The position numbers were made by a program, and so were the translations under genes. DNA of 64,000 nt from Gammaproteobacteria bacterium (GTDB lineage: Bacteria > Pseudomonadota > Gammaproteobacteria > Steroidobacterales > Foliamicaceae): NCBI GenBank assembly GCA_965200225.1, contig CBDATM010000001.1, positions 1,681,182-1,745,181 on the forward strand, read 5' to 3'. Shown piece by piece: positions 4,956-54,086 of the stretch. Positions within the stretch are counted from its first letter, which is position 1. Every line of letters begins with the position of its first letter. The notes beneath the pieces were generated by a model. That model saw nothing but the letters and a program-made list of their open reading frames with translations, was not told the DNA's origin and ran no database searches.

Positions 4956-5849
4956 GTGTTCAATAGTCCCTTTCGCGGAGAGGCGCTGGCCAGCCGTGGC
5001 CAGCGGCAACAGATCGACCATCTCCTTCGCACGACGGCGCCGCACGAGCGGCCGCTGCTTGCCAGCGTTGGCGCCTTGCTGCTCGCTTTCCTGGCCTGGG
5101 CGCTGTTTGGCAGCGTCGTGCGCGACGTAACGATAGACGGCGTTCTCGTTGCGCCGGGCGCGCGGCATGACCTCGTCTCCCTGGTGCCGGGCCATCTGCT
5201 GGAGTTCCTGGTCGAGCCGGGCGAACAAGTTGTGGAAGGACAGCTGATCGCGCGACAGAGCGCGCCGGAGCTCGACCGTGAGATCGCAGCGGCGCGCAAC
5301 AGGTTTGAACTGCTTGAAGCGGGAGAGCCGTCGGGCGCTGGCGAAGCCTCGGATAGCAGCGTGGCCGCGGCCCGGATGGCGCTTCGACAACTTGAGGCGC
5401 AGCGTACGGTCCGGGAACAGATCGTCAGCCACGTCGGAGGCGAGGTTACGGCCCTGCGGGTGGCCCCTGGAACGTATCTGGTTCCCGGCACCGCAGTCTT
5501 GCAGGTCCGGGTCCCGGATGCGCAGCCGCCGCGGGCCGTAGTGCAGGCCGCCCCCCATGTCGCGCAGCGCATTCGCGGGGGGATGCAGGCGTCGGTTGAG
5601 GTGGCGGTGCCCGGCGGCACGGTGCGTCAGGTGGCGGGGGAAGTTGCAGCGGTTAGCGCAGCTCCGCTGCCGGACTGGCTGGCGGCGCTGGGGCCGGCGG
5701 CTGCCGAGTCATCCGAGTCATCCGGGCGGGTTGACATCATCCTCCATGACGCGGCCGATCTCGCGGCGATCGACGGAGCGCCGGCGCGGGTACGCATCGT
5801 GCTCGGCCGCGTGCGGCCGGCTGTTCTCCTCTACGCCCAGTCGTCCTGA
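4956..5849 (+). CDS. HlyD-family secretion adaptor of the NHLM bacteriocin export system
   Basis: 297 aa with a GTG start. It begins FNSPFRGEALASRGQRQQIDHLL, followed by a single TM helix (LLASVGALLLAFLAWALFGSV) and a lipoyl-like hairpin. It lies immediately upstream of the C39-ABC gene, in the order typical of NHLM transport triads. Confidence 0.7.
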   Translation: MFNSPFRGEALASRGQRQQIDHLLRTTAPHERPLLASVGALLLAFLAWALFGSVVRDVTIDGVLVAPGARHDLVSLVPGHLLEFLVEPGEQVVEGQLIARQSAPELDREIAAARNRFELLEAGEPSGAGEASDSSVAAARMALRQLEAQRTVREQIVSHVGGEVTALRVAPGTYLVPGTAVLQVRVPDAQPPRAVVQAAPHVAQRIRGGMQASVEVAVPGGTVRQVAGEVAAVSAAPLPDWLAALGPAAAESSESSGRVDIILHDAADLAAIDGAPARVRIVLGRVRPAVLLYAQSS

Positions 5850-5863: not shown

Positions 5864-8062
5864 ATGCCGAAGACAAAGCGAGCGCGCCGCCCGATCAGGA
5901 ATCGGCAGCGCGTGACCACGCCGCTGCGGATGCAGACCCACGTCACCGAGTGCGCCGCAGCCTGCTTGGGCAGCGTGCTCGCCTATTTTGGGCGCTGGGT
6001 GTCGCTGTCGGAACTGCGCGAGCGGTGCGAGGTCAGCCGCGACGGCTCATCGGCGGCGGGCGTCTTGCGCGCCGCCCGGCACTACGGTCTGGAGTGCAAG
6101 GGTTGGCACGGCGGGGTGCGGCAACTGAAGAAGCTGGAACTGCCGCTCATCCTGTTCTGGGAATTCCGGCACTTTCTGATCCTTGAGGGCTTCGATAAAC
6201 GCCGCTTCTTCCTGAACGATCCGGCAGTCGGCCGCCGCACCGTGTCTGCGGAAGAGTTCGCCAAGGGATTCACGGGCGTTGCATTGCGCTTCCAGCGCGG
6301 ACCGAAGTTCGAGCGCGGCGGCGTTCGGCCGAGTCTGTTGCAGCACCTGCCGCAATGGCTGCATGGCGCCTGGGGCACGCTGGCCTACGCGGCTGCCTGC
6401 GGGCTGTTGCTGGCCGCGCTGGCGCTGGTGACGCCTGCCGCGCTAGCGCTGTTCGTGGATCAGGTGCTGGGAGAGGGCGAGCCGTGGGGCGCGATGCTGG
6501 CTACGGCGATGGCAGGCGGCGCCGCGCTGTCCTATCTGCTCGGCTGGATGAAGCAGCGCTGGCTGCGGCGCCTGTCCATCGGAATGGCCGTGCTGGCTGG
6601 AAACCATTTCATGACCCGACTGCTGCGCCTGCCGATCTCCTACTTCGACCACAGGCTCGTGGGTGACCTTACAACCCGCATCGTGTCCGTCGACCGCATT
6701 GCCCGCGGGTTGGCGGAGCACTTCTCCGGCGTCCTGATCGAGATGGCGATGAGCGCAATTTTCCTGGCCGTCATACTGGCGTATTCGCCGTACCTGGGGC
6801 TTTTTGTCCTCGCGCTGGCGGTGGTGAACGGGGTTCTCGTGCGTGTGATCGCGCGCCTTCGGACCGACCGGAACTACGTGCTGACCACGGAGCAGGGGGC
6901 ATTCATCGGCGTCGGCATGGCTATGCTCCATCAGGGCGACAACTTGCGCATGACCGTCGCCGACGATGGCTTCTTCGACCGCTGGAGCGGACACCAGGCG
7001 CGCGAGCTGGTTGCCCGGCACCGGTTCCTGGAGGCTGGCCACATCATCACGGCTCTGCCGCAACTCTTCCTGGCGCTGGGGAATGCCGCCGTGCTGCTGT
7101 TCGGGGCGGCCCAGGTCATGAGCGGTCAGTTGACCTTGGGGGCGCTGGCAGGGCTCTACCTCGTTGCGGGCATGTTCCTGGGCCCGATCGGACGGTTCGT
7201 CGAACTCGCCGACGAGCGGCAGGCTCTGGAGGCCGATCTGATGCGTCTCGAGGACATCACGTCTACCGCGCAGGATCCTGTGGCTGCGGACCGGCAGGAT
7301 GTGGCGGGGCGCATCGCGACCATCGACAACCGGCTGCGGCTGGTCGGCCGGTTGGAGTTGCGAGGCGTAACCTTCGGTTACAACCGGAACCGGCCTCCGC
7401 TGCTCGACAACTTCAGTCTGATCATCGAACCGGGCCAGCGGATCGCGGTGGTGGGTCCCAGCGGGTCCGGGAAATCGACCCTCGCCAAGCTGGTCGCGGG
7501 CATCCATCAGCCATGGTCCGGCGAGATTCTGCTGGACGGTCATCCGCGCGACAAGATTCCCGAAGAAGTGCTGGCGCGCTCGGTGTCCATGGTTGACCAG
7601 CGGATCATTCTGTTTTCGTCCACGGTGCGCGACAACATTACCCTGTGGAATCCCGCCGTTCCCGAACACGATCTGGTGGCCGCCGCCCGCGACGCCTGCA
7701 TCCACAAAGAAATTCTCGCCAGACCACTGGGCTACAAGACGCCCGTCAGCGAGGGCGGGGTCAACTTCAGCGGTGGTCAGCGGCAGCGGCTGGAGATTGC
7801 CCGCGCTTTGGTGAGCAATCCGACCTTGCTGGTTCTGGACGAGGCCACCAGCGCATTGGACGCCTCCACCGAGGCGGATGTCGAAGACGCGCTGCGCCGC
7901 CGCGGTGCCAGTTGCCTTATCGTCGCGCATCGGCTGAGCACGATTCGGGACTGCGACGAAATCATCTTTCTCGCCGAGGGCAAGACGGTGCAGCGCGGCG
8001 GCCATGAGGAACTGATGGCAGACAGCGAAGGACCGTACTATCAGCTTGTCCGCTCCGGTTGA
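5864..8062 (+). CDS. ABC transporter with N-terminal C39 (double-glycine) peptidase domain, NHLM system peptidase/ATP-binding protein
   Basis: 732 aa. The C39 catalytic-Cys context is QTHVTECAAACLGSVLAYFGRWVSL. It has a six-TM ABC membrane domain, Walker A GPSGSGKST, signature FSGGQRQRLEIARAL and Walker B LLVLDEATSALD. Confidence 0.9.
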   Translation: MPKTKRARRPIRNRQRVTTPLRMQTHVTECAAACLGSVLAYFGRWVSLSELRERCEVSRDGSSAAGVLRAARHYGLECKGWHGGVRQLKKLELPLILFWEFRHFLILEGFDKRRFFLNDPAVGRRTVSAEEFAKGFTGVALRFQRGPKFERGGVRPSLLQHLPQWLHGAWGTLAYAAACGLLLAALALVTPAALALFVDQVLGEGEPWGAMLATAMAGGAALSYLLGWMKQRWLRRLSIGMAVLAGNHFMTRLLRLPISYFDHRLVGDLTTRIVSVDRIARGLAEHFSGVLIEMAMSAIFLAVILAYSPYLGLFVLALAVVNGVLVRVIARLRTDRNYVLTTEQGAFIGVGMAMLHQGDNLRMTVADDGFFDRWSGHQARELVARHRFLEAGHIITALPQLFLALGNAAVLLFGAAQVMSGQLTLGALAGLYLVAGMFLGPIGRFVELADERQALEADLMRLEDITSTAQDPVAADRQDVAGRIATIDNRLRLVGRLELRGVTFGYNRNRPPLLDNFSLIIEPGQRIAVVGPSGSGKSTLAKLVAGIHQPWSGEILLDGHPRDKIPEEVLARSVSMVDQRIILFSSTVRDNITLWNPAVPEHDLVAAARDACIHKEILARPLGYKTPVSEGGVNFSGGQRQRLEIARALVSNPTLLVLDEATSALDASTEADVEDALRRRGASCLIVAHRLSTIRDCDEIIFLAEGKTVQRGGHEELMADSEGPYYQLVRSG

Positions 8063-11060
8063 ACTCATGGGATGCGCCGCCAGCCAGCTTGCCGATCTGG
8101 TCGCAGATTGGGGAACTGCCGTGTCCTGTGCCGGGAATCAGCCAGTTGACCTCGGCGACCCGCAGTGGGTCTGGTTTGTTGAGAAAGGCGCCGTGGACCT
8201 GTTCCTGATCGAGCGTCAGGACGGGGTAGAGCGGGCGGCGCGCCAACACGCGCTGCGCGCCAGACCCGGGCAGCTCCTGCCAGGCGTTGCGCCGCAGGCA
8301 GGTCCCACCACCCTTGGCCTGATCGCCAAGGGCAGCCCGGAAACAGTATTGTGGCGCCTGCCTGCCGACCGCCTCACCGATATCGAACCGGCGACGGTGG
8401 CGGCGCGGACCGACGAGTGGCTGACAGGCATCTCCGAAATGCTGGTCCGGGACGTGCAGTACGCGCCGCGGGCGGACGCGCTCGTCGATCCGGGACAGTT
8501 CGTCGAGCGTAGCGAGGGCACGGTGTCGGCGCGGCGCGGAGTTGCCTGGGTGTCGGCGCCGCCAGCGGGCTCGGGACTGTTTCTGGGCGTAACGGACCCG
8601 GTCGCTGAGATGCCTAGGGCCAGACCCGGCGCACAGCGTCCGTCCGCCGCCGGAGACCCGCAGGAGAGCGCGCCGCAGTCCGAAGTCGCCGGAAGATTCG
8701 TGGCGCTCACGCCGTCCAGTTGGCTGACCCTGACTGGTCCGGTACGGCTATCAGCCTGCTCCACCGAGACCCTGGCGAAAGAAGGCCGCCTGCTGGCCGC
8801 CTTGGCGGATTTCTACGCCGTGGCATTGTCCGCGGAACGGCTCAATCGAATGCTGGCGGTAGTCGATCAGACAAATGAGGAACGAGCCAGAGTCAGCAGC
8901 CGGCGGACTGCGGAGGATAGTGCCCGCCGTCGGCTGCTCGGCGTGGGCGGGCGCTCGCAGGAATGGGATGCGACCGCGGGGGACTCCGTCCTCCTGGAAG
9001 CGCTGCGGATCGTCGGGCGTCACGCAGGCATTTCTTTCAGGATGTCCGAAGCAACGGAACTCACCAACCCCGTCGCTCTCCTGCGTTATATTCTGGATGT
9101 GTCCGGGGTGCGCGGCCGCCGGGTGCGACTGGTTGCCGAAGACCGCTGGTGGCTTGGCGACAGCGGTGCCATGCTGGCTTTCCGGGCCGGTGACGAGCAG
9201 CCCGTTGCGTTGCTGCCGGGCCCGCTGGGACGCTATCGGGAAGTTGACCCCGTAACGGGGCGTTGCAGGCCGATCTCAGCCGCGCGCGCGGCTGAGATCG
9301 GAGCCAGCGCGTGGGCGTTCCACCGCCCCCTGCCTGCAGGCCGCGTCGGCCTGTGGAAGCTGCTCCGGTTTGCAGGGCAAGGAATGCTCGGCGATGTTGC
9401 GCGATTCGTAGCCCCCGGGGTGCTCGGCGGACTCCTGATGGTGTTGCCGGCCGTGATGCTGGGCTTCGTAGTTGCCGACGTCATCCCTGCCGGCTCCAAC
9501 GGCCTGCTGCACACGGCGGCCGCCATGGTGGCGGCAGGCGCGATCATCGGGGGGTTGCTCCATCTTCTCCAGCAGATGGCGCTGATGCGCCTGGAAGGAC
9601 GAGCCACGTCGCGCGTTGAAGCCGCATTCTGGGACCGTCTGCTACGGTTGCCCGGGCGTCTGCTGCGCCGCTATCCGACTGGAGACTTGGCCATGCGCGG
9701 CATGACCTTCCAGCAACTCCGCGACGTTCTGCAAAACGTGGTGGGCAATGCGTTTCTGTCGGTGGTCTTTCTGCTGCCGGCCTATCTCGTCATCTATCTC
9801 TACGATGCCGCGCTCGGCGGCGTATCCCTGGCCTTCGGCATACTGTCGCTGTCGGTTACGCTGATCTTCGGGCTGCGGCAGTTCGCCCCTCAGGCTCGCG
9901 TGTTGCGGGCCACTCACCGAGTGGCTGCCGGGCTGTTCCAGCTTTTGAACGGCGTATCCAAGCTGCGCGCCGAGGGCGCGGAAGGTTCGGCGTTCGCGGC
10001 CTGGGCGCAAGATTACCGAAAGCAGAAAGAGGCCGAACTGGAGGTCGGCGCCTTGGAGGCGCACCTGCACGGGCTCGGAGCGGCCCTGCCTCTGCTGGCT
10101 GGAGCGGTCCTGTTGACGGAGGCGACGTTGACGGGCGCCGGAACGGTAACGATCTCCGACTTCCTGGTTGTTTTCGCAGCGTTCCTGGGGTTTCAGGCGG
10201 CGGCGACCCGCTTGAATGCATCGTTCACCTCGCTGGCCGCCCTCCGCCCGGCCTTGGAGCGAGTGCGGCCGTTCCTTGAGGAATCCGCCGCCGAAGACGC
10301 CGAGGGCGAACCCGTAGAACGCCTGGGCGGGGAGATTCTGTTCGACCACATCAGTTTCAGCTACGACCCGGACGGTCCGCTGGTTCTCGACGACGTTTCG
10401 ATGCGCGTCCAGCCTGGCGAGTTCGTCGCCATCGCGGGCGAATCGGGCGCAGGCAAGAGCACCCTTCTGCGGCTCGCGCTGGGCCTGGACCAGCCATCTG
10501 CCGGAGTGGTGTACTACGATGGCCGCGATCTGAGACAACTCAACGCGAGGCAGCTACGTCGGCAGCTCGGCGTTGTGCCGCAGGACGTGCGGCTCCAGCC
10601 GGTGGATATCCTGGACAATATTGCCGGAGCGCAGGAAGAGGAAGGCGCGAAGGATGTCTGGCAGAGCGCTTGGCAGGCGGCGCGGGTGGCGAACGTGGAC
10701 CGTACGATAGCAACGATGCCGATGGGGATGCTGACGGCGGTCGGGATCAGCGGCGCCGAGGCCTCGGGGGGCGAGAGCCAGCGCATCACCATCGCTGGCG
10801 CGCTGGCGCGCAACCCCCGCATCCTGCTGCTGGACGAAGCGACCAACTGGCTCGACAACGATAGCCAAGCCGCGGTAATGCGCAACCTTGCCGACCTGTC
10901 CGCCACGCGGATCATCATCGCCCACCGCCTCTCCACCTTGCGTCTGGTGGATCGCATCTACGTGATGCAGGCGGGGAAGGTGGTTCAGGCCGGAACATTC
11001 AAGGAACTGGAGGCAACCGAGGGAGCTTTCCGCGACCTTGTGCGCCGCCAGATGGCCTGA
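8046..11060 (+). CDS. Second NHLM-system ABC transporter (no peptidase; N-terminal cNMP-binding-like domain)
   Basis: 1004 aa from TTG 8046. An alternative ATG at 8067 lies 5 nt after the upstream stop. The long N-terminal extension is followed by a TM domain, Walker A GESGAGKST, signature ASGGESQRITIAGAL and Walker B ILLLDEATNWLD. Confidence 0.85.
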   Translation: MSAPVELMGCAASQLADLVADWGTAVSCAGNQPVDLGDPQWVWFVEKGAVDLFLIERQDGVERAARQHALRARPGQLLPGVAPQAGPTTLGLIAKGSPETVLWRLPADRLTDIEPATVAARTDEWLTGISEMLVRDVQYAPRADALVDPGQFVERSEGTVSARRGVAWVSAPPAGSGLFLGVTDPVAEMPRARPGAQRPSAAGDPQESAPQSEVAGRFVALTPSSWLTLTGPVRLSACSTETLAKEGRLLAALADFYAVALSAERLNRMLAVVDQTNEERARVSSRRTAEDSARRRLLGVGGRSQEWDATAGDSVLLEALRIVGRHAGISFRMSEATELTNPVALLRYILDVSGVRGRRVRLVAEDRWWLGDSGAMLAFRAGDEQPVALLPGPLGRYREVDPVTGRCRPISAARAAEIGASAWAFHRPLPAGRVGLWKLLRFAGQGMLGDVARFVAPGVLGGLLMVLPAVMLGFVVADVIPAGSNGLLHTAAAMVAAGAIIGGLLHLLQQMALMRLEGRATSRVEAAFWDRLLRLPGRLLRRYPTGDLAMRGMTFQQLRDVLQNVVGNAFLSVVFLLPAYLVIYLYDAALGGVSLAFGILSLSVTLIFGLRQFAPQARVLRATHRVAAGLFQLLNGVSKLRAEGAEGSAFAAWAQDYRKQKEAELEVGALEAHLHGLGAALPLLAGAVLLTEATLTGAGTVTISDFLVVFAAFLGFQAAATRLNASFTSLAALRPALERVRPFLEESAAEDAEGEPVERLGGEILFDHISFSYDPDGPLVLDDVSMRVQPGEFVAIAGESGAGKSTLLRLALGLDQPSAGVVYYDGRDLRQLNARQLRRQLGVVPQDVRLQPVDILDNIAGAQEEEGAKDVWQSAWQAARVANVDRTIATMPMGMLTAVGISGAEASGGESQRITIAGALARNPRILLLDEATNWLDNDSQAAVMRNLADLSATRIIIAHRLSTLRLVDRIYVMQAGKVVQAGTFKELEATEGAFRDLVRRQMA

Positions 11061-11094
11061 TCGGCCGCTGGCGGGGATCAGGAAGAATCAGGCC

Positions 11095-12240
11095 GTGGAC
11101 CAATGTGAGCGGTTGGACCTTGCCGAAGAGCGTCTTGTCCGCGAGGCAAATTCGCTGGGCGCGCTGCTCGACGGTCTGCGACAGCGCTGGTCTCCCGCAC
11201 TCATCAATGACACCGAATGGGCGCGGCTGATGGAGCGGGCGCGGGCGTTTCCCGCGACCATGGCCTCCTGCCTGTTCGGGTTCGAGTTGCCGCTCCATGA
11301 CGCTCGGCCGCGAGCGGACCTGGGCGTCGGTCTCAACAGCGGGAGTCGTTCGGCTGCATCGTTCTGCGGCGCGGCGCGGCCGGAAGACGAAGACGCGGAA
11401 CCTTGCAAGAGGCGTCTGGCCGCCCTGCTGGCCACGGCGCAACAGCCGGATTCCGCTCTCTGTCGAGTCGGCGGGCGGCGACCCCATTTCATGCTGGAGT
11501 ACGACATCGGGTCGGCTCAAGGCGCCGCCCCGGACCCGGGCATCTTCTTCTACCCGATGCAGGATCGCGTGACTGCGGGCGGTCCGGCAGGCGAGTGGCC
11601 ACAGGACCTCGGGGCGGCGGCCCGCTCCGTCGCTGCGGCTGTCGGCAGACCCATGGACGACCGTGCCGGTCGCCGGATTGAGCAGCTTTGCCTGACGATG
11701 CCGCCCGGCGCATCCATTGGCTCGGTGGGGGCCTTTCCGGTGCGCGGCGCCGACGTACGGTTGGCCGTGATGGGATTCCGGCGCGCAGACAAACTTGCCG
11801 CCTTCCTCGACCGCGCCGGATGGACAGGGCAGCGCGCGGTGGTTGCCGACACGGCATCATCAATGGCGCTGCTTGGCGCCCACGGACGCGTGGGGCTCAA
11901 CATTGATGTGCTTGCCGACGGCTTGGGGGCGCGGCTGGGACTGAGCTTTTACGTCGATCCGTGGCCTTGGGCCCGCCGCCAGTGGCGCGGGCTGCTTGAT
12001 TACGCGCGCCACACCGGCTTGGCGGTTCCGGCGAAACTGGACGCGCTCGGCGATGCACTGCCACCGATGGACATGCTCTTGGGTCGCAGCGGCTCCTTTC
12101 AACTCCTGCACGGCATCCACCACGTCAAATTCGTGGTGGATGCCGAACGCATCACCGAGATCAAGGCCTATGACCTCCTGATGCTGCGTCCTTTTCTTGA
12201 CCGGGCGGCGCAGCCGCCCGGTCAAGACCCCGTGCCCTAA
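11095..12240 (+). CDS. Hypothetical protein of the RiPP locus (no family recognised)
   Basis: The ORF is open from 11038. GTG 11095 is preceded by AGGAAG with a 9-nt spacer. No motif I can assign with confidence. Its stop codon overlaps the stop of the convergent precursor A (CTAA at 12237-12240). Confidence 0.5.
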   Translation: MDQCERLDLAEERLVREANSLGALLDGLRQRWSPALINDTEWARLMERARAFPATMASCLFGFELPLHDARPRADLGVGLNSGSRSAASFCGAARPEDEDAEPCKRRLAALLATAQQPDSALCRVGGRRPHFMLEYDIGSAQGAAPDPGIFFYPMQDRVTAGGPAGEWPQDLGAAARSVAAAVGRPMDDRAGRRIEQLCLTMPPGASIGSVGAFPVRGADVRLAVMGFRRADKLAAFLDRAGWTGQRAVVADTASSMALLGAHGRVGLNIDVLADGLGARLGLSFYVDPWPWARRQWRGLLDYARHTGLAVPAKLDALGDALPPMDMLLGRSGSFQLLHGIHHVKFVVDAERITEIKAYDLLMLRPFLDRAAQPPGQDPVP

Positions 12241-12509
12241 GAGCAGCCGCTAAAATAGCTGCCGGAGACGCTCTCGAGTTGTTCCTCGTCGAGGTCGGGC
12301 AGCGGCGGCAGGGCGAGATGGGCGTTTTGCATGTCGCCCTCATGCACATGCACATTCATGCCTTCGGGCACGTCAACGCCGAATTCGCGGCTGATCACGG
12401 CCTTGGGGTCGGCCACCAACTCCGCGCGGAATTCAACGCTCTCGATTGACTTCTCGACGATCTGCTTGTAGAGATTCTCCGTCGTGGTCATCATGCTTTC
12501 GATGCTCAT
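12237..12509 (-). CDS. NHLP-leader RiPP precursor A (core YFSGCS)
   Basis: 90 aa. The NHLP-type leader is SVEFRAELVADPKAVISREFGVDVPEGMNVHVHEGDMQNAHLALPPLPDLDEEQLESVSG, followed by S-YFSGCS-stop. The RBS is AAGGAG, 8 nt before the ATG. The gene is divergent from the cyclodehydratase. Confidence 0.9.
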   Translation of the reverse strand: MSIESMMTTTENLYKQIVEKSIESVEFRAELVADPKAVISREFGVDVPEGMNVHVHEGDMQNAHLALPPLPDLDEEQLESVSGSYFSGCS

Positions 12510-12796
12510 AATTTTTCTCCTTTATTCAGTATGTCAAATAAACAAGGCTCGGATTAACAAGCGCATGTCGCTTGCCAACATGCCTCGCGCCAAACCTCTG
12601 CCGCCTATCATACTCCATTCCACTCCTCCCCCGATGCTTGGCAATATCAACAAGGATCGCGCGGCAACGTGCTGAACGCAGGCGAACGCAGCGGACACTA
12701 TGCCGGGCATGTAATTAGGTGAGATAATCGGGTTGCGAGGAACCAAGGATTGGGGCCAGCAAGCGTCGCGCGCCAGACGGCGTGGAGGAGGAACCG

Positions 12797-15118
12797 ATGC
12801 AAAGACAGGTGTCAGAGGCGGGCTGGGGCGCAGGGCGGGGGATTCTGAAGCGGACCACCGCGGCCGACCGCGGGCTTGTGGAGACGCCGTCGCTGACCCC
12901 GCACCTTGATTTCTTTGCGGTTGAAGCAGGGCGGACGCTGCTGGTTTCCGAGAGCTTCAACACGTTGATCCGCGGGCAGGTCCACCAGGACCTGCTGCCG
13001 CTGCTCGACGGCCGCTCCCGGCAGGCCGTGGCGGCCGCGCTCGCCGGCCGCCACGCGGCCGCGGACGTGGCGTCGGCGCTGGCGTCGCTGGCGTCGCGCG
13101 GCTACGTTGTCTCGGGCGACTACGCCATGGACCGGGGCCGGGCGGCGTTCTGGTCGGCGCTGGGCGCCTCGCCGCGCTGGGCGGAGCAGCGCCTGCGGAA
13201 TGCGCGGGTGGCCGCGCTCGGCGACGAAGGGCGCCTTGCCCGGCGCCTCGGGGACCTGGGGGCGCCGGCCGCCGCCGACGGCCGGACTTTGCGGGTCACG
13301 GTCTGCGGCGACTATCTGGACAGCTGTCACGCCGGCCTCAACCGGCGCCGGATCGCGTCCGGCGAGCCGTGGATGCTGCTGGCGCCGGAAGGCGGCCGTC
13401 CGCTGTTTGGGCCGGTTTTCCAGCCAGCCGGGCAAGGACCGTGCTGGGCCTGCCTCGCCCATCGCCTGCGGGGGCATCGCGAAGTTCACGAGTTCGCGCG
13501 CCGGATTGCCGGCAGCGGCTGTGTTCCGGCGCCGAAGGCGTCCGAGCCGGTCGTGGTGGAAGCGGTGTACGATCTGGCCGCCGCCGAGATCGCCAAGTGG
13601 CTGGTCTTCGACTCGCTGGCGCCGCTGCACGAGAACGTCATCTCGCTGGACGTGCTCGGCTTGCAAAGCGCGCGGCATTTTCTGGCGCGCCGCCCGCAGT
13701 GCCGCGTTTGCGGGGACGCGGCGCTGTATCGCCCCGACCGTCCGCCAGCGCCCGTGCGGCTGCGGCCAAGTCCCAAGCGCGCGCGCAGCAGCGGCGGCGC
13801 GCGCTCGGTTCCTCCTGAAGCGACCCTGGCGCGTTACCGGCATCTGATCAGCCCGGTAACCGGCGTGGTTTCCTGGCTTGAGCGGGCGACCGGCGAGACC
13901 GATCCGTGGTCGCATGTGTACTACGCCCGGGGCACCTTGGCGCCGCAGGGCGTCAGCGACCTGGGAATGCTGCGCCGCCGCCTGGGGATGACCAGCGCAG
14001 GCAAGGGCAGCACCGCGAGGCAATCCCGGGCGAGCGCCCTGGGCGAGGCGGTCGAGCGCTGCAGCGGAGTCTTTCATGGCGACGAAATCCGCTGCCGCCG
14101 CAGTTACTCGGACTTTGTGGCGGCGGGCGGGTCCGAAGCCATTCACCCCAACGAAGTGCAGTTGTTCAGCGATCGGCAGTTCGACGAACGCGAACGCCGC
14201 AACGCCGCCGCCCGGCAGCACAACCTGATTCCGGAGCGCCTCGACCCCGACGCGAAAATCGACTGGTCGCCGGTCTGGTCGCTGACGCAGGAGCGCCACC
14301 GGTACCTGCCAACGTCGCTCTTGTACTACTTCGGAGCGCCGGCGAGCGCGTTCCAGTTTCGGGCTGATTCGAACGGTTGCGCGGCGGGCAACACCCTGGA
14401 AGAGGCGATTCTCCAGGGATTCTTCGAGCTGGCGGAACGCGACGCCTTCGCGATCTGGTGGTATAACCGGTTGCGCCTGCCCGGCGTGGACCTGGAGAGC
14501 TTCGCGGACGACTTCCTGTCGTCGGCAGCGGAATACTACCGCGGCCGCCGGCGCAGCCTCTGGGCGCTGGACGCGACCAGCGACCTCGGCATTCCGGTGT
14601 TCGTCGCCCTCTCCCGGCGCGCTGATCGCAAAACGGCCGGCCACGACGAGATCATGTACGGGATAGGGGCGCACGCCGAACCGCGCATCGCGATTCTGCG
14701 CGCCGTATGCGAACTGAATCAGATGATCTCCTTTTTCGACATCAGCGCCCCCAGGAGCGATGGCCGGTGGCGGCCCTGGGACCGGCCGGTCAAGCTGGCG
14801 GACAACCCGTGGCTGACGCCGGCTCCCGGCGTCGCCCTGCGCGGCCGCTGGGATCACGCCGTTGCCGCCGAAGATGACGCGCGGGAAGACATTGAGCGCT
14901 GCCGGGCGCTGGTCGAAGCCAAGGGGCTGGAGTTGCTGGTCCTCGACCAGACCCGGCCCGACATCGGCATGCCGGTGGCGCGGGTCATTGTGCCCGGCCT
15001 CCGTCACTTCTGGCGGCGGTTAGCGCCGGGCCGCCTGTACGATGTGCCGGTCAGGACGGGGCAGCGCCCCGCCCCGAGCTCGGAGGGCGATCTCAACCCC
15101 CTTCCGGTCCTGGTCTGA
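12797..15118 (+). CDS. Fused TOMM cyclodehydratase, copy 1 (E1/ThiF-like SagC-type N-terminus + YcaO/SagD domain)
   Basis: The ORF is open from 12782. ATG 12797 follows GGAGGAGGAA. The N-terminal half shows GPCWACLAHRLRGHREVHEF and RRPQCRVCGD. The YcaO half shows SAGKGSTARQSRASALGEAVERCSG and NGCAAGNTLEEAILQGFFELAERDAFAIWWYN. Confidence 0.9.
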   Translation: MQRQVSEAGWGAGRGILKRTTAADRGLVETPSLTPHLDFFAVEAGRTLLVSESFNTLIRGQVHQDLLPLLDGRSRQAVAAALAGRHAAADVASALASLASRGYVVSGDYAMDRGRAAFWSALGASPRWAEQRLRNARVAALGDEGRLARRLGDLGAPAAADGRTLRVTVCGDYLDSCHAGLNRRRIASGEPWMLLAPEGGRPLFGPVFQPAGQGPCWACLAHRLRGHREVHEFARRIAGSGCVPAPKASEPVVVEAVYDLAAAEIAKWLVFDSLAPLHENVISLDVLGLQSARHFLARRPQCRVCGDAALYRPDRPPAPVRLRPSPKRARSSGGARSVPPEATLARYRHLISPVTGVVSWLERATGETDPWSHVYYARGTLAPQGVSDLGMLRRRLGMTSAGKGSTARQSRASALGEAVERCSGVFHGDEIRCRRSYSDFVAAGGSEAIHPNEVQLFSDRQFDERERRNAAARQHNLIPERLDPDAKIDWSPVWSLTQERHRYLPTSLLYYFGAPASAFQFRADSNGCAAGNTLEEAILQGFFELAERDAFAIWWYNRLRLPGVDLESFADDFLSSAAEYYRGRRRSLWALDATSDLGIPVFVALSRRADRKTAGHDEIMYGIGAHAEPRIAILRAVCELNQMISFFDISAPRSDGRWRPWDRPVKLADNPWLTPAPGVALRGRWDHAVAAEDDAREDIERCRALVEAKGLELLVLDQTRPDIGMPVARVIVPGLRHFWRRLAPGRLYDVPVRTGQRPAPSSEGDLNPLPVLV

Positions 15119-15132: not shown

Positions 15133-16515
15133 ATGCCCCTCAGCGACCTGCTTCACGAGCCGTCAATCCATGTTCGCACATGGGGCCGATCGGCGATCAG
15201 CCATTCTCGCTACAGCTCCTCGTTCGTAGGCTCGATCCGGAATAACCCGGTGCGGCTGGGTCCGTACGGCCGCGATTTCGAGGCGGCCCACAACCTGCTT
15301 GTGGCGGGCGCACCGCTTGCCGAACTCCACGCTGCCGTCGTCGAGGGGGGCAGCGTGGAGCGCGCCGCCGAGTACCTGGTTTGGCTGGAGCGGTTCAATC
15401 GGTTCGGGGGCATTGAGTTCCCGCTGGTCGACGAGACGGGCGAACGCGCCGTCATCCTCCCGCAGCAGGACACGTTCGTGCCTACCATGGCGCCGGACGC
15501 TCCGGCCGCCAGTACCTCGCTCGAACGCTTTGCCTTTTTGCGGCGCGGGAACGACGCGTGGCTGCTGGAGTCGCCCCTGGTTGGCGCGCAAGTTCAGCTT
15601 GTCGACCTCGCCGCGCTTGATAGCGATGTCGTCCGTCGCGCGCTTAACGGGATGGGCTTTCTCGATGCGGCCCGGCCGGACAGCGATGCGCGTCGTATTG
15701 CGCTCGCCCAGTGGGAGTTCCACGATCTGCTGTTCCACACCCGTGAGCGGCGCGGGTGGAATCGTGAACCGGCTGGCGCCGCGTTCCCGTTCATCGACCA
15801 GATCGAGCCGCTGCCTGCAGTGCGGCCGGCCTGGCCCGGCAAGCGCATCGCCCTGCCTCGCGCTCCGGATGCCGTCGCGGGGGAGCCCTTCGCGGCGGTG
15901 CTCGCACGGCGTTGCTCCGAGCGGGCGTACGATGCAGCCCACCCGATCACGCTGGCCGATCTCGGCGCGCTGCTCGACCGCGCCGCGCGCATCCGCTCGT
16001 CCATGGCGCATCCGGTACGCGACATCAAGGGTCGAACCGCCGAATTCGAAATCACTTTTCGTCCCTATCCTACGGGCGGCGCGAGCCACGAGCTGGAGAT
16101 CTATCCGATTGTGGACTTTTGCGTCGGACTCAAATCCGGTTGCTATCACTACGATGCGTCCGCCCACGAGTTGGTGCGGATCTCGGAGCGTACCCGGGAG
16201 ATCGACAAACTTCTGCGGTTTGCGCGGAGCGCAACGGCTGATCTGGCCCGGCCGCAGATTCTGCTGGGCGTAACGGCGCGCTTCGCTCGCGTCATGTGGA
16301 AGTACCGGGCGTTCTGTTACGCCATGATCCTGCGCGACACCGGGGCACTCTACCAGACGCTGTATCTCGCAGCCACCGAACTCGGCTTGTCGCCTTGCGC
16401 CATCGGCAGCGGCAACAGCCTCCTGTTCTCGCAAGTCACCGGTCTCGACCCGCTGATCGAGGGCAATGTCGGCGAGTTCATTCTCGGCGGCCGACCTGCA
16501 GCGTCCGCATCCTGA
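15133..16515 (+). CDS. SagB-type FMN-dependent azoline dehydrogenase, copy 1
   Basis: 460 aa. The nitroreductase-fold C-terminal half shows RRCSERAYD...FRPYPTGGASHELEIYP...LYLAATELGLSPCAIGSG. It starts 14 nt after the cyclodehydratase stop. Confidence 0.9.
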   Translation: MPLSDLLHEPSIHVRTWGRSAISHSRYSSSFVGSIRNNPVRLGPYGRDFEAAHNLLVAGAPLAELHAAVVEGGSVERAAEYLVWLERFNRFGGIEFPLVDETGERAVILPQQDTFVPTMAPDAPAASTSLERFAFLRRGNDAWLLESPLVGAQVQLVDLAALDSDVVRRALNGMGFLDAARPDSDARRIALAQWEFHDLLFHTRERRGWNREPAGAAFPFIDQIEPLPAVRPAWPGKRIALPRAPDAVAGEPFAAVLARRCSERAYDAAHPITLADLGALLDRAARIRSSMAHPVRDIKGRTAEFEITFRPYPTGGASHELEIYPIVDFCVGLKSGCYHYDASAHELVRISERTREIDKLLRFARSATADLARPQILLGVTARFARVMWKYRAFCYAMILRDTGALYQTLYLAATELGLSPCAIGSGNSLLFSQVTGLDPLIEGNVGEFILGGRPAASAS

Positions 16516-16666: not shown

Positions 16667-16713
16667 TTAGAACGCCGGCCGCCAAGTTGCCCGGAAGTAG
16701 TAGAAGCCGCCAT
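16667..16713 (-). pseudogene. 47-bp relic of the 3' end of the TonB-dependent receptor gene
   Basis: Identical to 21335-21381 (stop codon plus the last 15 codons of the receptor). Homology stops abruptly at 16713/16714. Confidence 0.85.
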
Positions 16714-16875
16714 ATTGTGCCCGGCCTCCGTCACTTCTGGCGGCGGTTAGCGCCGGGCCGCCTGTACGATGTGCCGGTCAGGACGGGGCAGCGCCCCGCC
16801 CCGAACTCGGAGGGCGATCTCAACCCCCTTCCGGTCCTGATCTGAAGGACGGCCTCCCGATAGCCTTCAGCGACC
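16714..16875 (+). pseudogene. 162-bp relic of the cyclodehydratase 3' end plus the sagB 5' end
   Basis: Colinear with 14987-15148. The first ~135 nt have 2 mismatches. The last ~25 nt (intergenic spacer and the first sagB codons) have 6 mismatches. There is no upstream coding context. Confidence 0.85.
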
Positions 16876-16901
16876 GATGAGAAACGCCCTGATTCTGCGA
16901 T

Positions 16902-17177
16902 CTAGCAGGAGCCGCAATGAATATAGCCGCCGGAGACGCTCTCGAGTTGTTCCTCGTCGAGGTCGGGCAGCGGCGGCAGGGCGAGATGGGCGTTTTGCAT
17001 GTCGCCCTCATGCACATGCACATTCATGCCTTCGGGCACGTCAACGCCGAATTCGCGGCTGATCACGGCCTTGGGGTCGGCCACCAACTCCGCGCGGAAT
17101 TCAACGCTCTCGATTGACTTCTCGACGATCTGCTTGTAGAGATTCTCCGTCGTGGTCATCATGCTTTCGATGCTCAT
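16902..17177 (-). CDS. NHLP-leader RiPP precursor B (core YIHCGSC)
   Basis: 91 aa. The leader is identical to precursor A up to LESVSG, followed by G-YIHCGSC-stop. Confidence 0.9.
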   Translation of the reverse strand: MSIESMMTTTENLYKQIVEKSIESVEFRAELVADPKAVISREFGVDVPEGMNVHVHEGDMQNAHLALPPLPDLDEEQLESVSGGYIHCGSC

Positions 17178-17464
17178 AATTTTTCTCCTTTATTCAGTAT
17201 GTCAAATAAACAAGGCTCGGATTAACAAGCGCATGTCGCTTGCCAACATGCCTCGCGCCAAACCTCTGCCGCCTATCATACTCCATTCCACTCCTCCCCC
17301 GATGCTTGGCAATATCAACAAGGATCGCGCGGCAACGTGCTGAACGCAGGCGAACGCAGCGGACACTATGCCGGGCATGTAATTAGGTGAGATAATCGGG
17401 TTGCGAGGAACCAAGGATTGGGGCCAGCAAGCGTCGCGCGCCAGACGGCGTGGAGGAGGAACCG

Positions 17465-19786
17465 ATGCAAAGACAGGTGTCAGAGGCGGGCTGGGGCGCA
17501 GGGCGGGGGATTCTGAAGCGGACCACCGCGGCCGACCGCGGGCTTGTGGAGACGCCGTCGCTGACCCCGCACCTTGATTTCTTTGCGGTTGAAGCAGGGC
17601 GGACGCTGCTGGTTTCCGAGAGCTTCAACACGTTGATCCGCGGGCAGGTCCACCAGGACCTGCTGCCGCTGCTCGACGGCCGCTCCCGGCAGGCCGTGGC
17701 GGCCGCGCTCGCCGGCCGCCACGCGGCCGCGGACGTGGCGTCGGCGCTGGCGTCGCTGGCGTCGCGCGGCTACGTTGTCTCGGGCGACTACGCCATGGAC
17801 CGGGGCCGGGCGGCGTTCTGGTCGGCGCTGGGCGCCTCGCCGCGCTGGGCGGAACAGCGCCTGCGGAATGCGCGGGTGGCCGCGCTCGGCGACGAAGGGC
17901 GCCTTGCCCGGCGCCTCGGGGACCTGGGGGCGCCGGCCGCCGCCGACGGCCGGACTTTGCGGGTCACGGTCTGCGGCGACTATCTGGACAGCTGTCACGC
18001 CGGCCTCAACCGGCGCCGGATCGCGTCCGGCGAGCCGTGGATGCTGCTGGCGCCGGAAGGCGGCCGTCCGCTGTTTGGGCCGGTTTTCCAGCCAGCCGGG
18101 CAAGGACCGTGCTGGGCCTGCCTCGCCCATCGCCTGCGGGGGCATCGCGAAGTTCACGAGTTCGCGCGCCGGATTGCCGGCAGCGGCTGTGTTCCGGCGC
18201 CGAAGGCGTCCGAGCCGGTCGTGGTGGAAGCGGTGTACGATCTGGCCGCCGCCGAGATCGCCAAGTGGCTGGTCTTCGACTCGCTGGCGCCGCTGCACGA
18301 GAACGTCATCTCGCTGGACGTGCTCGGCTTGCAAAGCGCGCGGCATTTTCTGGCGCGCCGCCCGCAGTGCCGCGTTTGCGGGGACGCGGCGCTGTATCGC
18401 CCCGACCGTCCGCCGGCGCCCGTGCGGCTGCGGCCAAGTCCCAAGCGCGCGCGCAGCAGCGGCGGCGCGCGCTCGGTTCCTCCTGAAGCGACCCTGGCGC
18501 GTTACCGGCATCTGATCAGCCCGGTAACCGGCGTGGTTTCCTGGCTTGAGCGGGCGACCGGCGAGACCGATCCGTGGTCGCATGTGTACTACGCCCGGGG
18601 CACCTTGGCGCCGCAGGGCGTCAGCGACCTGGGAATGCTGCGCCGCCTCCTGGGGATGATCAGCGCAGGCAAGGGCAGCACCGCGAGGCAATCCCGGGCG
18701 AGCGCCCTGGGCGAGGCGGTCGAGCGCTGCAGCGGAGTCTTTCATGGCGACGAAATCCGCTGCCGCCGCAGTTACTCGGACTTTGTGGCGGCGGGCGGGT
18801 CCGAAGCCATTCACCCCAACGAAGTGCAGTTGTTCAGCGATCGGCAGTTCGACGAACGCGAACGCCGCAACGCCGCCGCCCGGCAGCACAACCTGATTCC
18901 GGAGCGCCTCGACCCCGACGCGAAAATCGACTGGTCGCCGGTCTGGTCGCTGACGCAGGAGCGCCACCGGTACCTGCCAACGTCGCTCTTGTACTACTAC
19001 ACAGCGTCAGAGAGCGCGTCTCATTTTCAGGCCGATCCCAACGGTTGCGCGGCGGGCAACACCCTGGAAGAGGCGATTCTCCAGGGATTCTTCGAGCTGG
19101 CGGAACGCGACGCCTTCGCGATCTGGTGGTATAACCGGTTGCGCCTGCCCGGCGTGGACCTGGAGAGCTTCGCGGACGACTTCCTGTCGTCGGCAGCGGA
19201 ATACTACCGCGGCCGCCGGCGCAGCCTCTGGGCGCTGGACGCGACCAGCGACCTCGGCATTCCGGTGTTCGTCGCCCTCTCCCGGCGCGCTGATCGCAAA
19301 ACGGCCGGCCACGACGAGATCATGTACGGGATAGGGGCGCACGCCGAACCGCGCATCGCGATTCTGCGCGCCGTATGCGAACTGAATCAGATGATCTCCT
19401 TTTTCGACATCAGCGCCCCCAGGAGCGATGGCCGGTGGCGGCCCTGGGACCGGCCGGTCAAGCTGGCGGACAACCCGTGGCTGACGCCGGCTCCCGGCGT
19501 CGCCCTGCGCGGCCGCTGGGATCACGCCGTTGCCGCCGAAGATGACGCGCGGGAAGACATTGAGCGCTGCCGGGCGCTGGTCGAAGCCAAGGGGCTGGAG
19601 TTGCTGGTCCTCGACCAGACCCGGCCCGACATCGGCATGCCGGTGGCGCGGGTCATTGTGCCCGGCCTCCGTCACTTCTGGCGGCGGTTAGCGCCGGGCC
19701 GCCTGTACGATGTGCCGGTCAGGACGGGGCAGCGCCCCGCCCCGAGCTCGGAGGGCGATCTCAACCCCCTTCCGGTCCTGGTCTGA
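17465..19786 (+). CDS. Fused TOMM cyclodehydratase, copy 2
   Basis: Offset by exactly 4,668 bp from copy 1. The protein is identical except RRRLGMT>RRLLGMI and the patch FGAPASAFQFRADS>YTASESASHFQADP. Confidence 0.9.
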   Translation: MQRQVSEAGWGAGRGILKRTTAADRGLVETPSLTPHLDFFAVEAGRTLLVSESFNTLIRGQVHQDLLPLLDGRSRQAVAAALAGRHAAADVASALASLASRGYVVSGDYAMDRGRAAFWSALGASPRWAEQRLRNARVAALGDEGRLARRLGDLGAPAAADGRTLRVTVCGDYLDSCHAGLNRRRIASGEPWMLLAPEGGRPLFGPVFQPAGQGPCWACLAHRLRGHREVHEFARRIAGSGCVPAPKASEPVVVEAVYDLAAAEIAKWLVFDSLAPLHENVISLDVLGLQSARHFLARRPQCRVCGDAALYRPDRPPAPVRLRPSPKRARSSGGARSVPPEATLARYRHLISPVTGVVSWLERATGETDPWSHVYYARGTLAPQGVSDLGMLRRLLGMISAGKGSTARQSRASALGEAVERCSGVFHGDEIRCRRSYSDFVAAGGSEAIHPNEVQLFSDRQFDERERRNAAARQHNLIPERLDPDAKIDWSPVWSLTQERHRYLPTSLLYYYTASESASHFQADPNGCAAGNTLEEAILQGFFELAERDAFAIWWYNRLRLPGVDLESFADDFLSSAAEYYRGRRRSLWALDATSDLGIPVFVALSRRADRKTAGHDEIMYGIGAHAEPRIAILRAVCELNQMISFFDISAPRSDGRWRPWDRPVKLADNPWLTPAPGVALRGRWDHAVAAEDDAREDIERCRALVEAKGLELLVLDQTRPDIGMPVARVIVPGLRHFWRRLAPGRLYDVPVRTGQRPAPSSEGDLNPLPVLV

Positions 19787-19800
19787 AGGACGTTCTGCCG

Positions 19801-21183
19801 ATGCCCCTCAGCGACCTGCTTCACGAGCCGTCAATCCATGTTCGCACATGGGGCCGATCGGCGATCAGCCATTCTCGCTACAGCTCCTCGTTCGTAGGCT
19901 CGATCCGGAATAACCCGGTGCGGCTGGGTCCGTACGGCCGCGATTTCGAGGCGGCCCACAACCTGCTTGTGGCGGGCGCACCGCTTGCCGAACTCCACGC
20001 TGCCGTCGTCGAGGGGGGCAGCGTGGAGCGCGCCGCCGAGTACCTGGTTTGGCTGGAGCGGTTCAATCGGTTCGGGGGCATTGAGTTCCCGCTGGTCGAC
20101 GAGACGGGCGAACGCGCCGTCATCCTCCCGCAGCAGGACACGTTCGTGCCTACCATGGCGCCGGACGCTCCGGCCGCCAGTACCTCGCTCGAACGCTTTG
20201 CCTTTTTGCGGCGCGGGAACGACGCGTGGCTGCTGGAGTCGCCCCTGGTTGGCGCGCAAGTTCAGCTTGTCGACCTCGCCGCGCTTGATAGCGATGTCGT
20301 CCGTCGCGCGCTTAACGGGATGGGCTTTCTCGATGCGGCCCGGCCGGACAGCGATGCGCGTCGTATTGCGCTCGCCCAGTGGGAGTTCCACGATCTGCTG
20401 TTCCACACCCGTGAGCGGCGCGGGTGGAATCGTGAACCGGCTGGCGCCGCGTTCCCGTTCATCGACCAGATCGAGCCGCTGCCTGCAGTGCGGCCGGCCT
20501 GGCCCGGCAAGCGCATCGCCCTGCCTCGCGCTCCGGATGCCGTCGCGGGGGAGCCCTTCGCGGCGGTGCTCGCACGGCGTTGCTCCGAGCGGGCGTACGA
20601 TGCAGCCCACCCGATCACGCTGGCCGATCTCGGCGCGCTGCTCGACCGCGCCGCGCGCATCCGCTCGTCCATGGCGCATCCGGTACGCGACATCAAGGGT
20701 CGAACCGCCGAATTCGAAATCACTTTTCGTCCCTATCCTACGGGCGGCGCGAGCCACGAGCTGGATATCTATCCGATTGTGGACTTTTGCGTCGGACTCA
20801 AATCCGGTTGCTATCACTACGATGCGTCCGCCCACGAGTTGGTGCGGATCTCGGAGCGTACCCGGGAGATCGACAAACTTCTGCGGTTTGCGCGGAGCGC
20901 AACGGCTGATCTGGCCCGGCCGCAGATTCTGCTGGGCGTAACGGCGCGCTTCGCTCGCGTCATGTGGAAGTACCGGGCGTTCTGTTACGCCATGATCCTG
21001 CGCGACACCGGGGCACTCTACCAGACGCTGTATCTCGCAGCCACCGAACTCGGCTTGTCGCCTTGCGCCATCGGCAGCGGCAACAGCCTCCTGTTCTCGC
21101 AATTCACCGGTCTCGACCCGCTGATCGAGGGCAATGTCGGCGAGTTCATTCTCGGCGGCCGACCTGCAGCGTCCGCATCCTGA
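19801..21183 (+). CDS. SagB-type dehydrogenase, copy 2
   Basis: Offset by 4,668 bp from copy 1. There are two substitutions (ELEIYP>ELDIYP, SQVTGL>SQFTGL). Confidence 0.9.
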   Translation: MPLSDLLHEPSIHVRTWGRSAISHSRYSSSFVGSIRNNPVRLGPYGRDFEAAHNLLVAGAPLAELHAAVVEGGSVERAAEYLVWLERFNRFGGIEFPLVDETGERAVILPQQDTFVPTMAPDAPAASTSLERFAFLRRGNDAWLLESPLVGAQVQLVDLAALDSDVVRRALNGMGFLDAARPDSDARRIALAQWEFHDLLFHTRERRGWNREPAGAAFPFIDQIEPLPAVRPAWPGKRIALPRAPDAVAGEPFAAVLARRCSERAYDAAHPITLADLGALLDRAARIRSSMAHPVRDIKGRTAEFEITFRPYPTGGASHELDIYPIVDFCVGLKSGCYHYDASAHELVRISERTREIDKLLRFARSATADLARPQILLGVTARFARVMWKYRAFCYAMILRDTGALYQTLYLAATELGLSPCAIGSGNSLLFSQFTGLDPLIEGNVGEFILGGRPAASAS

Positions 21184-21272
21184 CACGCGGAACTGCCCGC
21201 AGAGCCGCAAGGATTCCAGGTTGCGGGCATTTCTACCTTGCGTTGACACTTCCCCCCGCAACCCGTACAAAA

Positions 21273-21309
21273 ATCCGGCGGCCAACGCAAACGCTGCGGG
21301 CCGCCGGAT
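21273..21309. terminator. Bidirectional hairpin between sagB-2 and the convergent TonB receptor
   Basis: Same 11-bp stem as 16605-16641. On the minus strand the hairpin is followed by TTTTTGT. Confidence 0.65.
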
Positions 21310-21334
21310 TGATTTGGGAGTTGAAATAGGCGGA

Positions 21335-23899: not shown

Positions 23900-23966
23900 G
23901 AGTCGTTCTCCGATTTCGAAGTAATGGGAATAAAGCCAACTTCCATGAAAGGCACATAGATAAGGG

Positions 23967-23996
23967 AAAAAAATTATAGCCGCAAATATATGCGGC
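23967..23996 (-). terminator. Rho-independent terminator of the CDF gene
   Basis: The minus-strand reading is GCCGCA-TATATT-TGCGGC followed by TATAATTTTTTT. The stem is at 23979-23984 / 23991-23996 and the A-run on the plus strand at 23967-23973. Confidence 0.7.
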
Positions 23997-24014
23997 TTGG
24001 GCTGTCAGAGTCTG

Positions 24015-25022: not shown

Positions 25023-25027
25023 AGGCG

Positions 25028-26547: not shown

Positions 26548-26621
26548 GAAGCGGAATGATAGGGGAAACGCCGGGTGATACTATCCGTGCTTCCTGCTTA
26601 CGGTTCTCTGTCAGATTCTCC

Positions 26622-27563: not shown

Positions 27564-27566
27564 GCC

Positions 27567-27615: not shown

Positions 27616-27633
27616 CTGATTCTCTATCAGTTC

Positions 27634-53973: not shown

Positions 53974-54086
53974 GCGCGTCCTCCTGGGCCAGTGGCGACT
54001 GCGCGCAGAATATGCCAGGAGCGCGATGGTCAGGAGTCATCACGGCACGTGAGGAAATCAGGCGGGTCAGGCAAGCCCTGCGTTCG

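Follow-up and report, generated by a model that had tools for sequence, protein, structure and literature searches.

A short mosaic patch distinguishes two near-identical YcaO cyclodehydratases in a tandem peptide cluster and may tune their core preference

YcaO cyclodehydratases are in wide use for putting thiazoline and oxazoline rings into peptides, and the determinants of their core preference are poorly defined. The stretch of DNA analysed here (64,000 nucleotides of contig CBDATM010000001.1 from a gammaproteobacterium; hereafter the window) carries a gene cluster for peptides that are ribosomally synthesized and modified post-translationally (RiPPs), formed by exporter and accessory genes and then two tandem three-gene units, each with a minus-strand NHLP precursor, a 778-amino-acid fused YcaO cyclodehydratase and a 460-amino-acid SagB-type dehydrogenase (Table 1). 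The locus is a natural experiment, in which two enzymes identical at 768 of 778 residues stand beside two different core peptides. Their ten differences all lie at residues 400, 404 and 517-530, and the last of these segments is encoded by a 41-base patch that we hold, with high confidence, to be a recombinational mosaic with its own history and not a burst of point mutations or local hypermutation. A role for the patch in specificity is plausible; the combined statement, that the patch is a mosaic and that the hairpin it encodes tunes core preference, is put forward tentatively, at a little under an even chance.

The patch and its history

Compared without gaps at an offset of 4668, the two units are 99.6% identical (99.86% excluding the patch), with 19 base differences outside the core-peptide codons, 13 of them within 14331-14371. 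The initial annotation had counted 12 differing bases out of 41 at 14332-14372 against 19000-19040, which is exact; a thirteenth change at 14331 shifts the patch accordingly (codons 517-530, 14330-14371). Its estimate of about six differences in the rest of the unit also holds, there being exactly six outside the patch and core codons: 13186 and 13747 are synonymous, 13980 and 13992 give R400L and T404I, and 16098 and 16435 give E322D and V435F, both in the dehydrogenase. The peptides quoted there are likewise exact, namely FGAPASAFQFRADS against YTASESASHFQADP for the patch, RRRLGMT against RRLLGMI before GKGST, NGCAAGNTLEEAILQGFFELAERD, and the minus-strand cores YFSGCS and YIHCGSC. Clustering of the patch changes far exceeds chance: the Poisson tail, scaled up by the window count, is ~9e-17, and in 200,000 uniform simulations no cluster held more than 6 differences, against 13 observed. 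All are substitutions (8 transitions, 5 transversions), set between 338 identical bases to the left and 1726 to the right; compensating frameshifts were rejected as an origin, because the two versions align without a shift. Residues are numbered here from the GTG at 12782, and 5 is to be subtracted for the ATG at 12797, which is probably the true start, lying behind a Shine-Dalgarno-like GGAGGAGG; database proteins for both cyclodehydratases are 773 amino acids long, consistent with this ATG.

Synonymous divergence separates the patch from everything around it. By the Nei-Gojobori method, its codons carry 4.0 synonymous differences over 9.8 sites (synonymous divergence, dS, 0.59) and 9.0 non-synonymous differences over 32.2 sites (dN 0.35), against 2 synonymous (dS 0.0021) and 4 non-synonymous differences (dN 0.0015) in the other 1222 codons of the two enzymes (Fisher p = 8e-8 for the synonymous-site contrast). 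Of the four synonymous steps, three fall on third positions of codons in which a replacement has occurred as well, and were 'unnecessary' for it. This divergence is comparable to that separating the cyclodehydratase from the orthologues of other organisms (dS 0.40, 0.66 and 1.19 for the related loci L001, L002 and L038). A patch dS so far above that of its flanks makes the gene a mosaic, and selection on point mutations after a recent duplication cannot explain it. The earlier view of a 'swapped or selected' segment thus stands for the separate history (dS 0.59 against 0.002); on the side of selection, dN/dS in the patch is about 0.6, with no signal of positive selection over its 14 codons.

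A diversity-generating retroelement, which the initial annotation had already set aside, was rejected: the differing sites have A at 0 of 13 in copy 1 and 5 of 13 in copy 2, and thus no adenine bias; the window shows neither a template repeat nor, among the open reading frames (ORFs) scanned, a reverse transcriptase. The same observations, with an ordinary 8:5 ratio of transitions to transversions, speak against programmed mutagenesis by another targeted mutator. We group this with the possibility of an artefact, in which two strains were collapsed into a false tandem array, and consider the pair very improbable. The sequence does come from a single metagenome-derived contig of 2.57 Mb, without a second observation; against an artefact, the junction between the units is complex and specific (a TonB receptor fragment, a relic and 33 unique bases), and the database has both proteins on the same contig.

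For the origin of the difference we favour retention in a homogenised array. An array of precursor-cyclodehydratase-dehydrogenase units would have gone through repeated rounds of rearrangement and of homogenisation, through gene conversion or unequal exchange, with three short islands escaping: the core-peptide codons, the hairpin loop, and residues 400 and 404. In a close variant, the patch would be a short conversion tract from an array unit since lost. Both patch versions are equal in length, 2 and 5 residues shorter than those of L001 and L002, and this shared short length fits divergence within the lineage rather than a distant family member as source.

We think import from outside less likely: the flanks of a foreign donor would differ at 30-40% of synonymous sites, and the identical flanks demand that it recombined no more than a few bases from either edge of the patch. 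In its full form this account posits a recent duplication and then the import of a tract of ~41-60 bases from a foreign orthologue or genomic paralogue, with or without functional effect, and we rate it unlikely. It draws on the fact that the patch is as diverged as orthologues are between organisms, and on the character of copy 2: the copy 1 patch (..FQFRADS) resembles L001 (..AFRADS) and L002 (..QFHADS), and the copy 2 version (..SHFQADP) looks derived, with a third-position G+C of 0.57 against 0.85 for the gene and an unusual Pro530. The spread of the family across many sponge-symbiont phyla would also make foreign alleles available in the habitat. The lineage-specific short loop of both versions stands against it, as does the failure to find a donor: a short-word blastn search with both versions against the whole window gave, besides the other copy, no match longer than 13 bases. 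Nor was a third close paralogue found, the nearest other protein among 5.8 billion being 79% identical and on a different contig, and a protein cluster look-up returning solely the two window copies, both on one contig. An exact-flank DNA pattern scan of metagenome contigs gave 0 matches and a protein-guided metagenome scan nothing above 63% identity; no close relative, and no other strain of the organism, appeared in the protein database, genome collection or metagenomes searched.

The enzyme itself is a clear homologue of the azoline-forming fused YcaO cyclodehydratases of LynD-PatD type, as judged from its domains, the adjacent Cys/Ser cores and the flavin mononucleotide (FMN) dehydrogenase. 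It has an N-terminal, leader-binding E1-like/RRE domain at residues 196-363 (TIGR03882, 1.7e-43) and a YcaO domain at 406-741 (PF02624, 2e-96; TIGR03604, 258 bits against a cut-off of 219). LynD (4V1T) matches over residues 38-776 (E 2e-161), and Foldseek aligns 768 columns with 4V1T-4V1V at TM 0.83-0.86. Across 122 homologues, G407, K408, G409, E422, E425, N531, G532, N537, E541, E549, E552, R553 and D554 are invariant. The patch segment lies between a near-invariant RHRYLPTS.L.Y and an invariant D529 plus N531-G-C-A-A-G-N537-T-L-E-E, and is itself variable and indel-prone, forming the sixth most variable 14-residue window of the family. It directly adjoins, in sequence, the NGxAxGN/EExxxxxxxExxERD motif, as first proposed.

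In the AlphaFold2 (AF2) model (mean confidence score, pLDDT, 82) there is a β-hairpin with strands 515-517 and 526-528, of which the patch encodes the tip and the second strand; the tip (519-524) has pLDDT <50. Strand 533-535 and helix 539-561 follow directly, carrying the invariant N531, G532, N537, E541, E549, E552 and R553, among them the conserved acidic residues of the YcaO nucleotide/Mg site. We know of no LynD-type structure with a core bound. From this position we infer that the hairpin lines the active-site entrance, where it would tune which context around Cys or Ser is cyclised efficiently; the outcome would be a bias in catalytic efficiency and not an exclusive pairing of one enzyme with one substrate. 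In the published structure of LynD the leader is visible and the core is not (PMC6395948). The active-site 'lid' of McbD (residues 275-295, McbBCD paper) was tried as a guide and rejected, since McbD is not reliably alignable to the cyclodehydratase.

At its right end the patch replaces Ser530 by Pro in copy 2, directly before the invariant Asn; Ser stands here in at least 90% of relatives, and also in LynD, TruD and MusD. Copy 2 might on this account be a redundant gene in decay, with the patch and its Ser530Pro beside the catalytic Asn marking a loss of function. Four of the six scattered differences are non-synonymous, and decay does occur in the clade, L001 having cyclodehydratase pseudogene fragments and a frameshifted precursor. 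We nevertheless find decay of copy 2 quite improbable: the reading frames are intact (778 and 460 codons) at 0.13% divergence outside the patch, decay would scatter changes and not put 13 in 41 bases in frame at the same length, and a synonymous divergence of 0.59 is too high for recent decay.

Loop sequence and core class across the family

Related loci, mostly from metagenome-assembled genomes (MAGs) of sponge symbionts in many phyla, were fetched with flanks of 6 or 10 kb on each side, and about 80 enzyme-core pairs from them were aligned, the window copies being excluded from the statistics. Most of their cores are LCCCW; the other classes are LCCCGx, LCCCG, LSCCx, RCCC, RCCCCx and LCCC. 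With overall identity matched (0.55-0.70), enzyme pairs have a loop identity of 0.64 when the core is the same and of 0.32 when it differs, a correlation taken without tree correction, as are the statistics that follow. In a scan of 13-residue windows at steps of six residues, association with the core is strongest at 644-662 and 512-530, followed by 242-254 and 386-404, with 386-398 and 392-404 ranking 7th and 9th. For the ten columns that distinguish the paralogues the effect averages 0.23, where all others average 0.02 (Mann-Whitney p = 3e-5; p = 0.0085 in a permutation respecting their clustering), a signal that comes mainly from the hairpin, columns 400 and 404 being weak (effects 0.05 and 0.07). 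Non-overlapping nearest pairs agree, showing an excess loop divergence of 0.22 for different cores and 0.05 for the same core (p = 0.0013). Plain mutual information between column and core class was dropped, as it tracks column entropy too closely, and the matched-identity and nearest-pair tests were used instead. Loop sequence thus appears to co-vary with core class, as a correlation independent of overall divergence.

Within the LCCCW class the loop is well conserved. R521, G522, D525 and L526 hardly vary among the 36 LCCCW-core enzymes of the first locus set, which come from several phyla, so the loop is not free-drifting. The segment around 400-404 reads as an almost invariant LRRSLRSKSA in enzymes with L(C/S)CC cores; RCCC and RCCCC cores go with variants particular to their class, and in the clade of diversified cores, which includes the window enzymes, the segment has diverged. 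The family analysis singles out the hairpin, with two other segments, as the places where the enzyme changes together with the core.

More than 1000 enzymes pass E 1e-20 in a protein search with the cyclodehydratase. Sponge-associated MAGs with enzymes 55-64% identical to it belong to Alpha- and Gammaproteobacteria, Acidobacteriota, Gemmatimonadota, Nitrospirota and Latescibacterota, among others; this distribution implies extensive horizontal spread. The non-LCCCW core classes may be less explored than the published srp family. Four loci (L024, L031, L070 and L130) encode, several kb away from the sole cyclodehydratase in the fetched flanks, a second precursor whose core is different (MCCCGI, WCCCGN, LCCCI).

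The main rival to a specificity role holds that the patch is a neutral leftover: old duplicates were homogenised, a weakly constrained loop diverged early, and its mismatches (13 of 41) now stop heteroduplex extension. We judge this possible rather than probable. It is in keeping with the variable length and high family rank of the loop, the patch dN/dS of about 0.6 with high dS, the disordered hairpin tip of the AF2 model and the relatives that serve several cores with one enzyme; the island edges, moreover, coincide with the transition from variable to invariant in the family. It accounts poorly for five family segments that are more variable than the patch (4-17, 649-662, 89-102, 156-169 and 289-302) and yet identical between the copies, and for a loop that, across deep divergences in the LCCCW group, is conserved to about the same degree as the remaining protein. 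The other islands are also telling, being the substrate core itself and a replacement pair in a normally invariant segment by the first ATP-binding motif; and the family association of loop with core class holds. Under a specificity role, we infer that conversion events erasing the patch difference would have been removed by selection.

Several observations weigh against that role. A tract so dense in mismatches can stop heteroduplex extension unaided, and an island could then survive with no selection on it; and dN/dS in the patch, at about 0.6 over 14 codons, does not exceed 1. LCCCW enzymes dominate the same-core pairs, and several different-core pairs share deep branches; LCCCGW against LCCCW and LCCCG against LCCCL show no loop excess; and at 648-655, where association with the core is strongest in the family, the two copies do not differ. 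Pro530 may mean impairment of copy 2 and not adaptation. The leaders of the two precursors are identical through residue 83, and no amino acid differs between the enzymes before residue 400, leaving the leader-binding domains identical. Each enzyme should therefore bind both precursors, and the pathways would not be insulated; LynD-type enzymes are, besides, dimers that pass the core to the partner subunit, which makes mixed dimers of the two copies likely. Recognition of the NHLP leader runs through the RRE domain (PMC12455567). One enzyme can also serve many substrates: L002 and L038 each have three different cores and one cyclodehydratase in the fetched sequence, MprC processes ten cores (PMC12455567), and fused YcaO enzymes are promiscuous towards the core (PMC12455567; bioRxiv 10.1101/2024.10.14.618330), so a dedicated enzyme variant per core is not required. 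Local core context can still matter, given that LazDE and LynD, the latter broadly promiscuous, are strongly sensitive to the residues at -1 and +1 of Cys (bioRxiv 10.1101/2024.10.14.618330).

The claim that patch and core co-vary has the backing of a family-wide correlation (64% against 32% loop identity), and within this genome the match of enzyme to core rests on a single pair of units; as a whole, the reading of the initial annotation is partly supported. A broader proposal, that hairpin 517-530 together with segments ~396-404 and 644-668 forms a modular determinant of core preference in fused YcaO heterocyclases, which micro-recombination would shuffle or protect in concert with the core cassette, we regard as doubtful. 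If true, enzyme and substrate would diversify as linked islands in homogenised units, providing a sequence rule for predicting or re-engineering YcaO substrate scope; under the neutral explanation, the locus would still serve as a clean case, in a bacterium, of concerted evolution from which an island escaped. What it offers for direct testing is compact: ten residues, with the two enzymes and the two substrates that occur naturally.

Gene cluster, junction and neighbourhood

The window has a G+C content of 62.6%. Features of the cluster and its surroundings are collected in Table 1.

Table 1. Coordinates of the cluster, its two units and adjoining genes in the window
Feature	Position	Strand	Details
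HlyD-type adaptor	4956-5849	+	From domain searches
NHLP-type ABC exporter subunit	5864-8062	+	With C39 peptidase domain
Second ABC exporter subunit	8046-11060	+	
400-amino-acid protein	11038-12240	+	No Pfam or NCBIfam match; adjoins precursor 1
NHLP precursor 1	12237-12509	-	90 amino acids; TIGR03793 at 1e-18; C-terminus ..LESVSGS, core YFSGCS at 12240-12257
Repeat unit 1	12261-16713		Matches unit 2 (16929-21381); ~4.45 kb (4453 bases)
Cyclodehydratase copy 1	12782-15118	+	778-amino-acid ORF from GTG 12782
R400L + T404I cluster	13979-13993	+	18647-18661 in copy 2; just before the GKGST nucleotide-binding motif
Patch copy 1	14331-14371	+	13/41 bases differ
SagB-type FMN dehydrogenase copy 1	15133-16515	+	TIGR03605 at 1e-45; PF22767, PF00881
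TonB-receptor 3'-end copy	16667-16713		Last 47 bases of unit 1; source gene follows unit 2
Relic	16714-16875	+	Last 132 bases of cyclodehydratase gene, spacer and dehydrogenase start (ATG to ATA)
33-base sequence of unknown origin	16876-16908		After the relic
NHLP precursor 2	16902-17177	-	91 amino acids; TIGR03793 at 2e-19; C-terminus ..LESVSGG, core YIHCGSC at 16905-16925
Cyclodehydratase copy 2	17450-19786	+	10 amino-acid differences from copy 1
Patch copy 2	18999-19039	+	
SagB-type dehydrogenase copy 2	19801-21183		Differs from copy 1 by E322D, V435F
TonB-dependent receptor	21335-23899	-	Follows unit 2
CDF cation-efflux protein	24015-25742	-	
ZnuA-type zinc-binding protein	26556-27563		
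Second TonB-dependent receptor	27553-30330		

The core of precursor 2 sits exactly at the left edge of the repeat. At the presumed C39 cleavage site, precursor 1 has Gly-Ser (12258-12263) and precursor 2 Gly-Gly (16926-16931); the two products may be released differently or with a different N-terminus. Homologues of the 400-amino-acid protein stand in L002 (17313-18446, 48% identity) and L038 (7289-8359, 30%), and it appears to be a conserved uncharacterised member of a sub-clade of related clusters.

Between the units lies the relic, over whose length the intact copies are identical to each other; it departs from them at 8 of 162 bases, so the array is older than the 0.2% divergence between units suggests. 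The make-up of the whole junction (16667-16908) suggests two or more rearrangements, or else a third unit of which most has been deleted. In the closest relative, L001 (79% identity; 8691-9986 and 13263-13538 of that locus), there are inverted fragments of a second cyclodehydratase gene, the main cyclodehydratase copy is N-terminally truncated (583 amino acids called) and the NHLP precursor is frameshifted; the cluster seems to be decaying there.

Metal-transport genes adjoin the cluster (21335-30330), starting with the TonB-dependent receptor. With such neighbours, and small Cys/His/Ser cores (YIHCGSC), one possibility is that the products are metal-binding peptides taken up via a receptor. 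A DUF222/HNH endonuclease gene, of a type often mobile, follows at 30518-32518 (minus strand) and adjoins gyrA (32953-35520). Towards the end of the window, dispersed repeats (54065-54476, 56993-57404, 58957-59092 and 60904-61049; 88-93% identity, 78% for the most diverged copy) cover two ORFs of 129 amino acids without family matches, near a KAP-family NTPase fragment (55780-56556) and an AAA_14/DUF4143 ATPase (59091-60263), and the region may be a mobile or defence-related island. At 60587-60982, about a dozen tandem 33-base repeats (83-95% identity between most copies) lie within ORF 60421-61158, which has no family match, and would encode an 11-residue peptide repeat.

Comparison with known systems

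The window enzyme has the same length and domain order as the cyanobactin heterocyclases LynD, TruD, PatD and MusD (PDB codes 4V1T, 4BS9 and 7U58), and shares with LynD-type enzymes GKG(S/K)T, DSNGxAxGNTLEEAILQGF, an NPxP C-terminus and a dehydrogenase partner. Its hairpin is two residues shorter than that of LynD (YPLPPEHRFARGDS region). Unlike in cyanobactin systems, the substrates are NHLP (proteusin-type) precursors with cores of 6-7 residues, and there is no macrocyclase/protease cassette.

Closer relatives are found among sponge symbionts: after L001, the nearest homologues (60-64% identity) are sponge-symbiont enzymes of LCCCW loci. The srp and mpr pathways (SrpE/SrpC/SrpB/SrpI; MprE1-10/MprC/MprD) share with the window an NHLP leader with L(X)4L, a fused YcaO enzyme and an FMN dehydrogenase (bioRxiv 10.1101/2023.06.09.544420; PMC12455567). 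The srp 'sponge-derived RiPP proteusin' precursors end in LCCCW (bioRxiv 10.1101/2023.06.09.544420), where the window has YFSGCS and YIHCGSC, cores without Trp, and no flavin-dependent brominase of srp type (SrpI) or halogenase domain was found in the window ORFs scanned. The window, unlike srp and mpr, also has an NHLP-type C39 ABC exporter and adjacent metal-uptake genes, and it duplicates the whole maturation unit, whereas mpr has many precursors and one promiscuous enzyme. Judged on these features, the cluster is best placed as a sister group related to the srp clusters and not as a member of them.

Concerted evolution of tandem paralogues, with islands escaping gene conversion, is a general phenomenon, and the units resemble it in their kilobase near-identity, in short older tracts at both types of site, and in a relic more diverged than the intact copies. 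The likeness is drawn from the sequence of a single genome. A literature search on YcaO paralogues with gene conversion gave nothing relevant; we know of no report of paralogous copies differing only in this hairpin, and the search returned none.

Hypervariable core cassettes in otherwise near-identical RiPP loci are established for the cyanobactin pat and tru clusters and for prochlorosins. The window shares with these a sharply bounded island of core codons, as does L002, with its three precursors of identical leaders and different cores. It differs from the classic pattern in having a second island inside the modifying enzyme. The hypervariable-island pattern known for RiPP precursors can thus extend into the enzyme that modifies them, a new variant of the core-cassette pattern.

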